Source of the DNA: Escherichia phage glasur
Strand: one strand, 5' to 3'
DNA: 42,507 nt
Sequence record: MN850583.1
Numbering within the stretch: position 1 is the first letter of the stretch; every line of letters starts with the position of its first letter. The notes beneath the pieces were generated by a model that was given only the letters and a program-made list of their open reading frames with translations, made no database searches and was not told the origin of the DNA. Below are positions 21,797 to 26,229 of the stretch, one piece after another. The position numbers were made by a program, and so were the translations under genes.

Positions 21797-23362
21797 ATGG
21801 CATACGACGCGCAGAACGTCAGCTATGAATCGCTCTGGCAAAAGTACCGGGACAGTAACGTAGTCACCAAGGCTCGTGAGTACAGTCGTTACACGTTGGC
21901 CAAGCTGGTCAGTGAATACGACCGCGCCGAAGTAGACGACATGAACCGCCAGCAGATTACTCGTGACTACCAATCTGTCGGCGCTCTGCTCGTTAACAAC
22001 CTCGTCGCTCGACTGGGTGAGTTCCTGTTCCCGGCATCAGCCCGGTTCGTAAAGCTGAAACTCGATAAGGTGTCTGACCAACAGCGGCAGCAAATGTCCA
22101 AGGTTAATCAGGCACTCATCACTATTGAAAAGGGCATCGTAGACAAAGCCAAAGAGAATGGCGGCTACGCTGACCTGTTAATGACCATTGCCCAACAAGC
22201 AGTCACTGGTAACGCCGCGCTGTACCGCGATATGGAAACTGGAACGTACCGAGTGTACGGGCTGGAATCCTTCGTGGTGCAGCGCGACGGTCGTGGCGTT
22301 GTTACGGACGCCGTGGTCAAAGAACGCATCCAGTGGGATTCCCTCGACAAAGCGTTTCAGGACATGCTGAACGCCAAGGGCTTCCGCTGTGGTGGTAACA
22401 AACGTGTGTGGCTGTACACTCGCGTCCTCCGGGTTCGGAAGGACAGTGGGCTGTATGGCTATGAAGTAACGCAGCAGGTGGGCAACTACCAAGGCTGTGT
22501 CTACACCCCCGGTAAAGATTACTACCCTGAAAAAGTCTGCCCTTGGATTTTCCCAGTGTGGTCTTTGAAGTCTGGCGAGCATTATGGTCGCGGGATTGTC
22601 GAAGACCACGCTGGGGATTTCGCACGTCTGTCGATGCTGTCCGAGCACTCTGCTCTGTACATGCAAGAGGCGCTGCGTGTCCTGTGGATGCTGACTGGTT
22701 CTGGCGGCAACGTCGATGACATTGAATCCGCGCAGACCGGGCAGGTCGTACCTCTCCAGAATGGCACCACGCTGTCTGGTCTTGAGGTCGGGGATTACCA
22801 GAAAGTTCAACAGGCCCGTGACGAAATTAACCAGATTGTGCAGCGACTCGCGCAGGCGTTCATGTACACTGGTGAGTTCCGTGACTCGGAGCGTACCACC
22901 GCAACCGAAGTGCAGCAGGTAGCAACCAGCGCCGAACGTGGGCTGGGCGGCCCGTACTCGATGCAGGCAAAGACCCTCCAGATTCCTCTGGCATATGTCT
23001 TGCTCGCAGAGATTGACGAGTCCTCCGTACCTGACATTGTGGGTGATATCCTGACGCTTCAAGTTGAAGCTGGTCTGGATGCCCTCGGTCGCAGCATCGA
23101 AGCTGAGACGCTGATTCGTGCGCTCTCGGATTCGCAGGCAGCAATGGTTGCTGTCCAAAACATTAACGGCGTTGCCAACGTCATTGACCCGCAGAAGGTC
23201 ATTGAGGTTATCTTCGCTTCCAACGGCGTCGCGCTTGATGACTATCGTAAGTCAGCGCAAGACCTCGCAAATGAAGGTCAGCAAATCGACAGAGCAGCAG
23301 CCGCTGCCGCAGGCGTACAGCCGGGCGCAGTCGATGTAGCGCCGAACGTCGCTCAGATTTAA
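21797..23362 (+). CDS. Head-tail connector (portal) protein, T7 gp8-like
   Basis: 521 aa, at the canonical position before scaffold and capsid genes. GGGAG ribosome-binding site. Confidence 0.8.
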   Translation: MAYDAQNVSYESLWQKYRDSNVVTKAREYSRYTLAKLVSEYDRAEVDDMNRQQITRDYQSVGALLVNNLVARLGEFLFPASARFVKLKLDKVSDQQRQQMSKVNQALITIEKGIVDKAKENGGYADLLMTIAQQAVTGNAALYRDMETGTYRVYGLESFVVQRDGRGVVTDAVVKERIQWDSLDKAFQDMLNAKGFRCGGNKRVWLYTRVLRVRKDSGLYGYEVTQQVGNYQGCVYTPGKDYYPEKVCPWIFPVWSLKSGEHYGRGIVEDHAGDFARLSMLSEHSALYMQEALRVLWMLTGSGGNVDDIESAQTGQVVPLQNGTTLSGLEVGDYQKVQQARDEINQIVQRLAQAFMYTGEFRDSERTTATEVQQVATSAERGLGGPYSMQAKTLQIPLAYVLLAEIDESSVPDIVGDILTLQVEAGLDALGRSIEAETLIRALSDSQAAMVAVQNINGVANVIDPQKVIEVIFASNGVALDDYRKSAQDLANEGQQIDRAAAAAAGVQPGAVDVAPNVAQI

Positions 23363-23374
23363 TTTGGAGATTAC

Positions 23375-24610
23375 ATGTCTGGTGAATACCAACCTACTGC
23401 CGCACCCGCTCCCCAAAACGTACCCGCTGGCCCGACCTATGCTCCCTCTGGTCACAGCGGTAATGATTATGGTGGAAGCCCACAGGTGGTACAGAACCCA
23501 GCGCTCGGACGCTTAGGCACGCCGATTGAACTGCCGCGAGGTGGTGCAACTCCGCAGCCGCAACAGCCGTTCGGTCAACAGCCGGGCCTGATTCCAAATC
23601 AGGAGTACAACCCGTATGCCCAACCGCAGCAGGGAAACCCAAGCCCTTACGCACCCGTACCTCAGCAGAACCCGTATGGTGCTCCGCAACCGCAAAGCCC
23701 GTTTGCGGCACCACCTATTCCGATTAATGGGTATCCGCAACAGGGCTACACGCCTCCGGGCCAAGCGGCTCCGGCACAGCAGCCGGGCTTAGCACCGAAC
23801 AACCCTGCGTATGGCTTCAACCCTTATGGGCAGCAGCCTCAGCAGCAGCAGCAACCACAACAGCAGGCACCTCAGCAGCCGCAGCAGCCTTTCCAGCAGT
23901 TGCAGCAGCAGCATGGCCAGCCTCCGCAGCAGTTCCAGAATCCTAACCTGACAGCAGATAAGCTGGCGGCGCAGGAAGGTGGGCTGACCGCAGAGCAGGT
24001 TGCTCAGATTTTCCCGGACGACACCAGCCGCGCAGTGTTCCAAGGTATGGACACCATTGCCCGTGGCCAGAACATCGACCTGCTTACAGCGTTCGGTTCT
24101 GCCTACGAGCGTCGTGACCCTACTCTGGTGAACGAGCGCTATCTGGCACAGTTCGACCCTCAGACTGTATCCATCCTCAAAGGTCAATTCGGCGCACTGG
24201 TTGCCGCTGGTCAGCAGCGCGATGCTGCAATCGAACAGCAGGTTTACCAGATGGCTGGTGGTCAAGAGCGTTGGGGTCTGGCAGTTCAGGCATTCAACAC
24301 CGCTGCCGACAAAGGCACGATTGATGCTGTAGTAGCGGCTGTGAACTCCGGCGACCCTAATCAGGTACGTCTGGCAGTGAACACCATTCTCCAGTTTGCT
24401 GGTTCCCAAGGGAATATGATTCAGCGTTCTGGACAAAGTTTGACGCCTAATGGTGGCGGTCAAGCACCTCGTGACGTTATGACTAACGAGGCATTCCGTC
24501 AGCATCTTGGCTGGCTTGAGCAGGCGCATCCTGTTGGTTCCCCGGAATACAACAAGCATTACGCCGTACTGGTAGAGCAGCGCCGTCAGGCCAAAGCTCA
24601 AGGTTATTAA
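23375..24610 (+). CDS. Capsid assembly scaffolding protein with an unusually long N-terminal Gln/Pro/Tyr-rich low-complexity domain
   Basis: Position between portal and major capsid genes. C-terminal half looks helical; the N-terminal roughly 190 residues are PQ-rich (QQPQQQQQPQQQAPQQPQQPFQQLQQQHGQPPQQFQ) and encoded by CAG/CCG-rich DNA. Confidence 0.6.
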   Translation: MSGEYQPTAAPAPQNVPAGPTYAPSGHSGNDYGGSPQVVQNPALGRLGTPIELPRGGATPQPQQPFGQQPGLIPNQEYNPYAQPQQGNPSPYAPVPQQNPYGAPQPQSPFAAPPIPINGYPQQGYTPPGQAAPAQQPGLAPNNPAYGFNPYGQQPQQQQQPQQQAPQQPQQPFQQLQQQHGQPPQQFQNPNLTADKLAAQEGGLTAEQVAQIFPDDTSRAVFQGMDTIARGQNIDLLTAFGSAYERRDPTLVNERYLAQFDPQTVSILKGQFGALVAAGQQRDAAIEQQVYQMAGGQERWGLAVQAFNTAADKGTIDAVVAAVNSGDPNQVRLAVNTILQFAGSQGNMIQRSGQSLTPNGGGQAPRDVMTNEAFRQHLGWLEQAHPVGSPEYNKHYAVLVEQRRQAKAQGY

Positions 24611-24631
24611 TTTCTTTCGTAAGGACTTCCC

Positions 24632-25624
24632 ATGGCCGACAACTACTATCAGCCGAATCAGTTCCGTCCACACTGGGGTGGTGCGAACTCTGATAACGAC
24701 ATTCACCTTGAGGTGTATGACCGTGATGTGCAGACCCAGTTCATCTACAACTCCATCTTCCGCAGCGGCCTGACCAACTTCAAGTCTGTTGCGAACCAGT
24801 CCAACACTTGGCGTGGCGACCGTCTCGGCTCCGTGTCTGTGAAGGGCCGTAAGTCTGGTCAGTCTCTGGACAACCAGCCTGTTCGCTCTGAGAAGCTGAT
24901 TGTCACTGTGGATACCGTGTCTTACATCCGTATCCCGATTGACTATCAGGACGACTGGACTGCGCCGGACTTCCGTGCTGAGCTGACCCGTAACATGGGT
25001 ACTGCACAGGCGAAAGCGTTCGACCAAGCGCACGTCATCCAGCTCCAGAAGTCTGCTGACTTCGTTCCTCCGACCTCTCTGGCAGGCGCGTTCAACTCCG
25101 GTATCAAGGAGAAAGTAACGCTGACTGGCACCGTGGCTTCTGAGGAAGACGATGCAAGCGCACTGGTGCATGGTCACAAGAAAGTCATTGAGGCGTTCAT
25201 TCGCCGCGATGCCGACCTTGGCCGTCTGGTAACGCTGATTGACCCGGCGTGGTTCAGCATCCTGCTGGAGCACAAGAAACTGATGAACGTTGAGTTCACT
25301 GGTGGTCGTGGTGTGAACGACTTCGCTATGCGTCGTGTTGCTTACGTGAACGGTATCCGTATCATCGAGAGCAACGCATTCCCGCAGGCAGCAATCACCA
25401 ACCACATCCTCGGTGCCGACTTCAACGTCACCGCCGAAGAAATCAAGCGTAAGATGATTATCTTCGACCCGTCTCTGGCTCTGGTCACTGTCGAAGCCCA
25501 ACCGCTGTTCAACCGCGTGTGGGATGACGAACGTGAACTGACCAACGTTCTGGACAGCTTCCACATGTACACCGTGGGTCAGCGTCGTCCTGACGTGGTA
25601 GGCGTGGTTACTACCGAAGCCTAA
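24632..25624 (+). CDS. Major capsid protein (T7 gp10-like)
   Basis: 330 aa, strong ribosome-binding site, canonical position, and followed by a hairpin as in T7-like phages. Confidence 0.85.
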   Translation: MADNYYQPNQFRPHWGGANSDNDIHLEVYDRDVQTQFIYNSIFRSGLTNFKSVANQSNTWRGDRLGSVSVKGRKSGQSLDNQPVRSEKLIVTVDTVSYIRIPIDYQDDWTAPDFRAELTRNMGTAQAKAFDQAHVIQLQKSADFVPPTSLAGAFNSGIKEKVTLTGTVASEEDDASALVHGHKKVIEAFIRRDADLGRLVTLIDPAWFSILLEHKKLMNVEFTGGRGVNDFAMRRVAYVNGIRIIESNAFPQAAITNHILGADFNVTAEEIKRKMIIFDPSLALVTVEAQPLFNRVWDDERELTNVLDSFHMYTVGQRRPDVVGVVTTEA

Positions 25625-25634
25625 TGGCAAACTC

Positions 25635-25658
25635 GAAGCCCTTCTCACGAGGGGCTTC
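25635..25658 (+). terminator. Hairpin downstream of the major capsid gene (stem GAAGCCC/GGGCTTC, loop TTCTCACGAG); putative late terminator or processing site
   Basis: 7-bp GC-rich stem directly after the capsid stop codon, the position of T-phi in T7. Downstream CTATGATTG is only weakly U-rich. Confidence 0.45.
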
Positions 25659-25680
25659 TATGATTGTCACTGGAGGTTTT

Positions 25681-26229
25681 ATGACTTTACTCGAAGCAGT
25701 TAACATTGTTCTTCGGGCATTGTCGGAGCACACCGTATCCTCGACTGAGATTCGAAACCCGTCCGTTACCCTTGCACTTGACAAGATTAATGTGGCGACG
25801 GAAGAAGTCCTCACCGATGGCTGGTGGTTCAACAATATCCGAATCACCATTCCACGCGAGTCGGATGGTCGAGTCAAATATCCCGCAGACGCACTGAGCT
25901 TCATCCCCGATGGGTTTGAGTGTATTGTGCGAGGCGGGTATCTTTACAACGCGCAATCCCAAACCTTTGTTTTTACTGAGGATGTTCCGGGATTGGTTAC
26001 TTATGATTTGGGGTGGGATGACTTACCGAGTCCTGTTCAACGACTCATTGCATATCAAGCAGCTATCTCAGCTTACGCCGACGACATTGGGGATAACCCT
26101 CCGGCCAGCGTGACAGGCGGCTATGCTATGGCGTTGCAGCAGTGCCAGTCAATCCATACCCGTCAACGTCGATTCAATGCACGCCAGCGTCAGAGCTGGT
26201 GGCGATATGAGAGTGCTCGGAGAGGATAA
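25681..26229 (+). CDS. Tail tubular protein A (T7 gp11-like)
   Basis: ATG at 25681 with GGAGG upstream, inside track ORF 25624..26229. 182 aa; assignment by position and size. Confidence 0.65.
   Translation: MTLLEAVNIVLRALSEHTVSSTEIRNPSVTLALDKINVATEEVLTDGWWFNNIRITIPRESDGRVKYPADALSFIPDGFECIVRGGYLYNAQSQTFVFTEDVPGLVTYDLGWDDLPSPVQRLIAYQAAISAYADDIGDNPPASVTGGYAMALQQCQSIHTRQRRFNARQRQSWWRYESARRG

Follow-up and report, generated by a model that had tools for sequence, protein, structure and literature searches.

The head scaffolding protein of Escherichia phage glasur joins a long, disordered Gln/Pro-rich N-terminal tail to a helical C-terminal domain

The gene analyzed here lies at positions 23375-24610 on the plus strand of a window of 42,507 nucleotides (nt), the whole stretch of DNA considered, from Escherichia phage glasur (sequence record MN850583.1). 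We show that this open reading frame (ORF), of 411 amino acids (aa) plus stop codon, encodes the head scaffolding protein of a member of the genus Bonnellvirus, and that the protein is built of two parts, a disordered tail at the N-terminus and a helical domain at the C-terminus (hereafter the C domain). As a protein, the glasur scaffold is unremarkable: its genus is published, its family is known and annotated, and its prion-like composition has been on record since a catalogue of 2017. What is new is that the tail is family-wide, that by the evidence of its substitutions it is under selection and carries defined motifs, and that only its poly-Gln/Pro spacer varies in length. Taken as a whole, the protein is best explained, in our judgment with moderate confidence, as a helical domain bearing a disordered tail of the type common in its family, which would point inward and would combine short binding motifs with a Gln/Pro spacer. 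The features referred to in the text are the following.

23366-23369, plus strand: Shine-Dalgarno sequence GGAG, 5 nt before the ATG at 23375 and kept across 22 relatives.
23375-24610, plus strand: head scaffolding protein gene (synteny, matches to PHROG 36307 and PHROG 1018, orthologues in phages forsur and usur).
23375-23953, plus strand: intrinsically disordered N-terminal tail, residues 1-193 (composition, entropy, AlphaFold2, Uversky rule, substitution rates, insertions and deletions).
23420-23431, plus strand: VPAG, residues 16-19, a copy of the family-wide motif [VILFM]P[PAV][GAS].
23486-23536, plus strand: hydrophobic island VVQNPALGRLGTPIELP, residues 38-54 (conservation in the clade).
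23609-23830, plus strand: Gln/Pro matrix with aromatic motifs, residues 79-152 (alignment, conservation of aromatics).
23831-23944, plus strand: hypervariable poly-Gln/Pro spacer, residues 153-190 (tandem repeat array, variation in tract length, CAG-rich DNA).
23954-24412, plus strand: conserved helical core, residues 194-346 (AlphaFold2 helices, Foldseek matches in BFVD, homologues).
24413-24484, plus strand: flexible Gly-rich loop, residues 347-370 (AlphaFold2).
24485-24598, plus strand: C-terminal helix-turn-helix, with helices at residues 371-384 and 390-408 (AlphaFold2).

The identity of the gene follows from several lines of evidence. It is placed in the late operon between the portal gene (21797-23362; PF12236, E=2e-46), whose stop codon is followed after 12 nt by the scaffold ATG, and the gene of the major capsid protein (24632-25624; phrog_267, E=7e-80), which starts 21 nt past the scaffold stop; the further neighbours are those of tail tube A and nozzle. 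The protein matches the 'head scaffolding protein' family PHROG 36307 across residues 1-411 (E=8e-218), the broader phiKMV-type family PHROG 1018 across residues 152-411 only (E=4e-13) and the 'head assembly' family PHROG 1052 (E=7e-5), and there is no Pfam model for it. The segment 21797-25624 has 98.5% nt identity with two Escherichia phages of the genus Bonnellvirus, forsur and usur, the orthologues of which carry the scaffolding protein annotation. A Foldseek search of BFVD with the predicted structure returned 16 matches at E ≤ 0.001, solely scaffolding proteins of Autographiviridae. The first-pass annotation, made from the letters of the DNA, had called the gene a scaffolding gene, and synteny, PHROG 36307, the annotation of forsur and usur and the fold matches all bear this out; its coordinates and frame for the ORF were correct too.

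The tail stands out in composition from the other long ORFs of the phage. Residues 1-190 (positions 23375-23944) contain 24% Gln, 23% Pro, 11% Gly, 9% Ala, 6% Asn and 6% Tyr, with two Lys or Arg and four Asp or Glu residues that give a net charge of -2; 16 residues of the tail are aromatic, eight of them at conserved positions. Shannon entropy reaches its minimum of 1.6 bits at residues 151-175. The best 60-residue segment of the scaffold holds 65% Gln plus Pro, whereas none of the other 41 long ORFs exceeds 23%, and such a composition is therefore not due to chance. AlphaFold2, given a family alignment of 41 sequences as input, models residues 1-193 as coil devoid of secondary structure, with a predicted local distance difference test (pLDDT) score of 41-57, and the charge-hydropathy rule of Uversky places the N-terminal part of the protein in the disordered field and the C-terminal part in the ordered field. 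Composition, structure prediction and the Uversky rule thus agree with the earlier description of the first ~190 residues as low-complexity, disordered and Gln/Pro-rich sequence with interspersed aromatics.

We then compared the gene with that of 22 relatives drawn from phage and IMG/VR collections, namely 16 bonnellviruses, phage LIMEzero and five IMG/VR contigs. All have an uninterrupted ORF of 387-411 codons with the GGAG and the ATG kept and with no stop codon between tail and core. Insertions and deletions lie nearly all within the tail, and 100% of them are multiples of three, so that the frame is kept. The pairwise ratio of nonsynonymous to synonymous substitution rates (dN/dS) is 0.21-0.32 in the tail versus 0.06-0.10 in the C domain, and the rate of evolution of the tail is ~3 times that of the C domain. 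By this pattern of substitution the tail is translated and under purifying selection. The same data bear upon the possibility that the tail is a separate upstream gene, or that the real start lies downstream, as would be implied by the 277-aa annotation of Cronobacter phage RZ4. Such a possibility might draw support from the RZ4 record, in which the only annotated ORF is short and begins at an internal ATG, and from PHROG 1018 and the distant homologues, which align only from about residue 152-229 onwards. However, the lack of a stop codon between tail and core in the 22 relatives, the GGAG kept before the ATG at 23375, the match of PHROG 36307 to residues 1-411 and the dN/dS below 1 in this frame are all contrary to it; moreover, no in-frame internal ATG, GTG or TTG is preceded by a Shine-Dalgarno sequence, apart from a weak AAGG before codon 348, and the internal ATG of RZ4 results from the substitution A135M, found otherwise only in Kc261 and ROV85. 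We consider this alternative almost certainly wrong, and the tail to belong to the scaffold as first annotated.

The record of RZ4 (LC778449; L013, 2081-2914) annotates a 277-aa 'hypothetical protein'; upstream of it, the ORF of 411 codons is complete, GGAG and ATG included, and the start was probably mis-called, as a gene-caller artefact. Another observation concerns the middle of the tail, in which bonnellviruses have two alleles at residues 118-127 (PQQGY or QNPGA) and two at residues 134-152 (PGLAPNNPAYGFN or FQQPVAPQPYAFD). All four combinations of these allele pairs (positions 23726-23830, residues 118-152) are present in the genus, and the synonymous distances (dS) of tail and C domain are discordant, being 0.60 and 0.28, respectively, between glasur and altidsur but 0.43 and 0.93 between glasur and J8-65. 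Together, the four combinations and the discordant distances indicate recombination within the scaffolding gene.

Judging from sequence conservation, the tail is not featureless, since it comprises VPAG, the hydrophobic island, the aromatic motifs and the poly-Gln/Pro spacer. VPAG is one copy of the motif [VILFM]P[PAV][GAS]. Of the 146 usable representatives of the wider family (see below), 72 have this motif within their first 40 residues, versus 21±4 (maximum 32) in 200 composition-preserving shuffles. The island has the consensus VVQNPALGxLGTPIELP, with an invariant NPALG core and flanks that are conserved or conservatively substituted; it ranges over Bonnellvirus, Waewaevirus (LIMEzero), metagenomic relatives and the entries P0002, P0003, P0151 and P0153, and is absent from more distant family members. 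The aromatic motifs are mostly of the form [NS]P[YF] (NPY 79-81, SPY 90-92, NPY 99-101, SPF 108-110 and NPY 149-151), with further aromatic pairs at GY 119-120 and AY 145-146, and are spaced ~10 residues apart between residues 81 and 120. Positions 81, 92, 101, 110, 120, 146 and 148 are aromatic in all of eight divergent lineages, and position 151 is so in seven of the eight, with a gap in the remaining one. The NPALG core and these eight aromatic positions are thus kept even where tail identity is only 51-61%. A homology search with residues 1-82 gave four candidates, none of them significant, and one with residues 1-190, swamped by low-complexity word matches, gave no result; neither search placed the tail or its island within another kind of protein.

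To place the tail in the family we searched with the C domain. A HMMER scan of 1.84 billion representatives gave 168 homologues at E ≤ 0.001, and a separate search for protein homologues gave six proteins. In the 146 usable representatives the tail has a median length of 73 aa (range 9-185 aa) and a mean composition of 19% Pro, 18% Ala, 12% Gln, 8% Asp or Glu, 3% Lys or Arg and ~2% aromatics. Tails of at least 150 aa are present in five of the 146, all in the clade of glasur, where they range over 154-190 aa. On this sequence survey, a low-complexity N-terminal tail is near-universal in phiKMV-type scaffolds, the clade of glasur having the longest known. The premise of the first-pass annotation that scaffolds of T7-like phages are compact consequently fails, given the tails of the 146 representatives, the ~110-residue tail of LUZ19 and the acidic N-terminal region of T7 gp9.

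The closest relatives, the other bonnellviruses and LIMEzero (PHROG 36307; J8-65 A0A088F6K0, forsur QHR71813, LIMEzero ORF39), share the two-part build and the motifs, with tail identities to glasur of 82-98% in the genus, 84% for J8-65, 71% for Lidtsur and 51% for LIMEzero; the other bonnellviruses differ from glasur by 1-5 codons in the poly-Gln/Pro tract and by mosaic combinations of tail alleles. The phiKMV-type scaffolds (PHROG 1018; gp31 of LUZ19 and phiKMV, LKA1 gp42, RSB3, Fri1) have a homologous helical C domain, as seen by tblastn, hhalign and BFVD, and also an N-terminal low-complexity tail, often with a VPP[AG]-type motif. Their tails are, however, shorter and usually Pro/Ala-rich, that of LUZ19 gp31 being of Pro, Ala and Gln, and have neither the VVQNPALG island nor [NS]P[YF] motifs. 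The scaffold of Acinetobacter phage Fri1 is assigned to this family by hhalign (99.35%, E=6e-21) and has a tail rich in Gln, Asn, Gly and Phe. T7 gp9 has the same gene position and its N-terminal ~100 residues are also of low complexity, but this region is strongly acidic rather than Gln/Pro-rich (29% Asp plus Glu and a net charge of -25 in the first 100 residues). The hhalign comparison of the family profile with T7 gp9 aligns a plausible AGGxERW/F core at E=0.0055 and a probability of 6.6%, which is too weak to establish homology, and T7 gp9 is possibly a remote relative at best. None of the bonnellvirus papers treats the scaffold, and we found no paper on proline-rich phiKMV scaffolds in the literature.

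Length variation is confined to one part of the tail. By alignment, only the poly-Gln/Pro spacer (residues 153-190) appears to be length-variable, with a tract of 34-38 residues among bonnellviruses and of 27-38 across the wider clade. Near-identical pairs of phages (altidsur and aldrigsur, HHU8 and megetsur, RZ4 and Kc261, glasur and forsur) differ here by one or two codons, CAG or CCG, and single-codon differences are seen between phages of at least 97% genome identity. The length polymorphism between isolates that had been predicted from the repeats is hence present, in frame and within the CAG-rich tract, and it is small, of one to a few codons. The prediction of slippage-prone DNA did not fare as well, given that the longest run has four units and that the total tail length across the genus stays at 185-190 aa despite the repeat; this steadiness suggests that tail length is under constraint.

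At the DNA level, Tandem Repeats Finder reports a degenerate array of period 3 or 15 at 23830-23913, with 65-67% matches and scores of 40-48, and the DNA of the poly-Gln/Pro stretch has a degenerate period of 15 or 18 nt; in the GenBank records of forsur and usur, a repeat_region is already annotated over the stretch that corresponds to 23831-23882. No perfect run exceeds four units, the longest being (CAG)4 at 23840-23851 and (GCA)4 at 23902-23913. CAG is the Gln codon in 34 of 45 cases in the tail versus 19 of 26 in the folded domain, that is, in equal use. The DNA is therefore CAG- and CCN-rich because the protein is Gln/Pro-rich, not because it holds a long microsatellite, and of the earlier claim of repeat-like, CAG-rich DNA the composition and the degenerate array stand, but not the long repeat. 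In comparison with a contingency locus, the tract has differences in repeat number, but neither a long perfect repeat nor on/off switching of expression.

Such a tract could also be tolerated filler, that is, low-complexity sequence expanded by slippage and recombination in a protein which needs only some flexible N-terminal extension. The faster evolution of the tail, the concentration in it of nearly all indels of the gene, the hypervariability of the poly-Gln/Pro stretch and the spread of tail lengths over 9-185 aa among the representatives would fit this alternative, as would a composition that drifts with guanine-cytosine (GC) content: among nine hand-picked phages the share of tail amino acids with AT-rich codons correlates with the GC content of the flanking DNA (rho=-0.75, p=0.02). 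This correlation suggests that the chemistry of the tail may be loosely constrained and may partly track genomic GC content or mutational bias. Yet a dN/dS of 0.2-0.3 represents clear purifying selection, the NPALG core and the eight aromatic positions have been kept in tails that have otherwise diverged widely, and tail length in the genus is steady. We thus regard mere filler as rather improbable.

The prion-like character ascribed to the tail holds for its composition but not for its propensity. Residues 112-191 contain 34 Gln or Asn in 80 residues, above the 30 in 80 of the Michelitsch-Weissman rule, and the orthologue of J8-65 is listed in a PLAAC survey of phage proteomes, among prion-like-domain proteins, with a log-likelihood ratio (LLR) of 32.4 (Tetz and Tetz 2017, PMC5694896, Table S1); the same study gives an LLR of 40.1 for a LIMEzero protein and of 33-37 for several Acinetobacter podophage scaffolds (PMC5694896). 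A PAPA-type score peaks at -0.19 for the tail compared with a threshold of 0.05, and the same calculation gives 0.10 for the N domain of Sup35. Amyloid is disfavoured because proline, at 23%, is spread through the whole tail; amyloid-type behaviour is unlikely, and an extended, flexible chain of polyproline-II type would be a more natural reading. That the tail be a true prion or amyloid domain, with a switch of conformation and self-templating, has in its favour the count of Gln and Asn and the positive PLAAC result, but besides the proline content and the low propensity it has against it that a scaffold must exit the capsid and is presumably used again, to which an irreversible amyloid is ill fitted. 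We consider it highly improbable.

Disordered, uncharged, flexible linkers rich in Gly, Gln and Pro are found in bacterial proteins as well, namely SSB of E. coli, ZipA and FtsK, and the linker of SSB promotes cooperative self-association. Their likeness to the glasur tail is one of composition only; they have no known homology to it, act in another context and lack [NS]P[YF].

The other part of the protein is predicted to be well ordered. In the AlphaFold2 model, residues 194-346 and 371-408 form confident helices with pLDDT mostly above 90, in the core from residue ~210 onwards. Between the helical core and the C-terminal helix-turn-helix there is a second, short disordered segment, the loop SGQSLTPNGGGQAPRDVMT (residues 347-370), in which residues 348-365 have pLDDT below 50 and no secondary structure. 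R403, in the second helix of the helix-turn-helix, is invariant in 41 family members. No solved relative was found in the PDB with the family profile or with Foldseek. Likeness to gp8 of phage P22 can nevertheless be drawn from the helical body, the flexible segments and the C-terminal helix-turn-helix, which in P22 is a hook on the coat protein preceded by a flexible connection similar to the loop 347-370 of glasur (PMC12005531). By this analogy the helix-turn-helix of glasur is likely to be a coat-binding hook, although P22 gp8 has no detectable relation to it in sequence or fold (Foldseek against the PDB; the P22 C-loop entry has E=9) and lacks a long Gln/Pro tail. A side result of the searches with the C domain is P0154, a protein of 184 aa in NCBI encoded on a contig of 773 nt, which is 76% identical to the C domain of the scaffold and is recorded as 'hypothetical protein, partial' of Cutibacterium acnes; it most likely stems from contaminating phage DNA or from mis-binned reads of an enterobacterial podophage.

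How the two parts might work together can be proposed on the model of the P22 procapsid, in which the helix-turn-helix of gp8 hooks the coat, the helical parts oligomerise and touch the portal, and the rest forms a disordered inner layer (PMC12005531). In glasur the C-terminal hook would likewise grip the capsid protein, so that the tails would face the lumen of the procapsid, which would be crowded with something like a hundred copies at a tail concentration of ~100 mg/ml within the shell. A T=7 procapsid of T7 contains roughly a hundred or more copies of its scaffold. At such a concentration even the weak interactions of aromatic motifs and hydrophobic island could become significant, whether or not free droplets exist. 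The short motifs might thereby establish weak multivalent contacts with other scaffolds, and perhaps with portal or core, that would help to gather the scaffold and to start or complete the shell, while the Gln/Pro stretches would be flexible linkers tolerant of changes in length. Being unfolded and uncharged, the tail would not stick to DNA and could be expelled easily through openings of the capsid during packaging.

Several points weigh against this explanation of the protein. The orientation of the tail, the partners of its motifs and its route of exit are all drawn by analogy. LIMEzero lacks the first ~26 residues, VPAG included, and this motif is therefore dispensable in at least one lineage. 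AlphaFold2 gives the island a pLDDT of 41-48, with no hint of folding. PPWS1, Ep4 and K2044-K1-1 have charged tails that are not rich in Pro and Gln, from which it follows that absence of charge is not a universal requirement. The correlation with GC content comes from only nine phages. Finally, the spacing of the aromatic residues is no more even than in shuffled sequences (coefficient of variation not lower, P=0.15), and a designed pattern of stickers and spacers is hence not demonstrated.

The last point is also adverse to the idea of phase separation, according to which scaffolds condense into liquid droplets via contacts of Gln and aromatic residues and thus nucleate procapsid assembly. 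This idea overlaps with the multivalent contacts of the explanation we prefer, and is favoured by a tail that is disordered, nearly uncharged and Gln-rich with 16 aromatics, half of them at conserved positions, as well as by the PLAAC values for J8-65 (32.4) and for the LIMEzero and Acinetobacter scaffolds (33-40; PMC5694896). Yet the aromatics are spaced no more uniformly than by chance, and most relatives presumably build the same capsids with shorter, Pro/Ala-rich tails of ~2% aromatics, so that condensation cannot be a general requirement; furthermore, a search of the literature for phase separation of phage scaffolds yielded no paper. Phase separation as a nucleator of assembly is plausible, but we judge it unlikely to be what the tail does. 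We are more doubtful still about the tail being a full sticker-and-spacer domain, in which scaffolds would co-condense through aromatic motifs and VVQNPALG island, with or without portal or core, into a liquid-like nucleus for the T=7 shell, while the poly-Gln/Pro stretch would tune its material properties. Inward-facing tails with short binding motifs and a Gln/Pro spacer, with or without condensation, are the reading that we retain.

Some observations concern the surroundings of the gene. A scan of 23000-25800 for sigma-70 promoters and terminators found none. A minus-strand frame of 619 aa at 23789-25648, which runs opposite the end of the tail, the core of the scaffold and the complete capsid gene, is open because of CTG-rich antisense codons; we rejected it as a gene, taking it for an artefact for which no homology was sought. 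Downstream, tail tubular protein A has as its longest candidate frame an ORF of 201 aa (25624-26229), which begins inside the last codons of the capsid gene, and in relatives the product has 182 aa (549 nt), with a start ~57 nt further downstream; forsur and mellemsur have an extra ORF of 189 nt annotated in the gap before tail tubular protein A.

Scaffolds are the least-resolved parts of the procapsids of phages and herpesviruses, because much of them is flexible protein. In the phiKMV-type branch a disordered N-terminal tail is the rule, and its chemistry is varied, rich in Pro and Ala, in Gln, Pro and Tyr or in Gln, Asn, Gly and Phe, with an acidic counterpart in T7, while short motifs are kept. 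The bonnellviruses grow on E. coli K-12, and their scaffold bears on the general question of what role the disordered half of such a protein plays; if the tail did act through a condensate, such a simple coliphage would offer a tractable model of condensate-templated capsid assembly.

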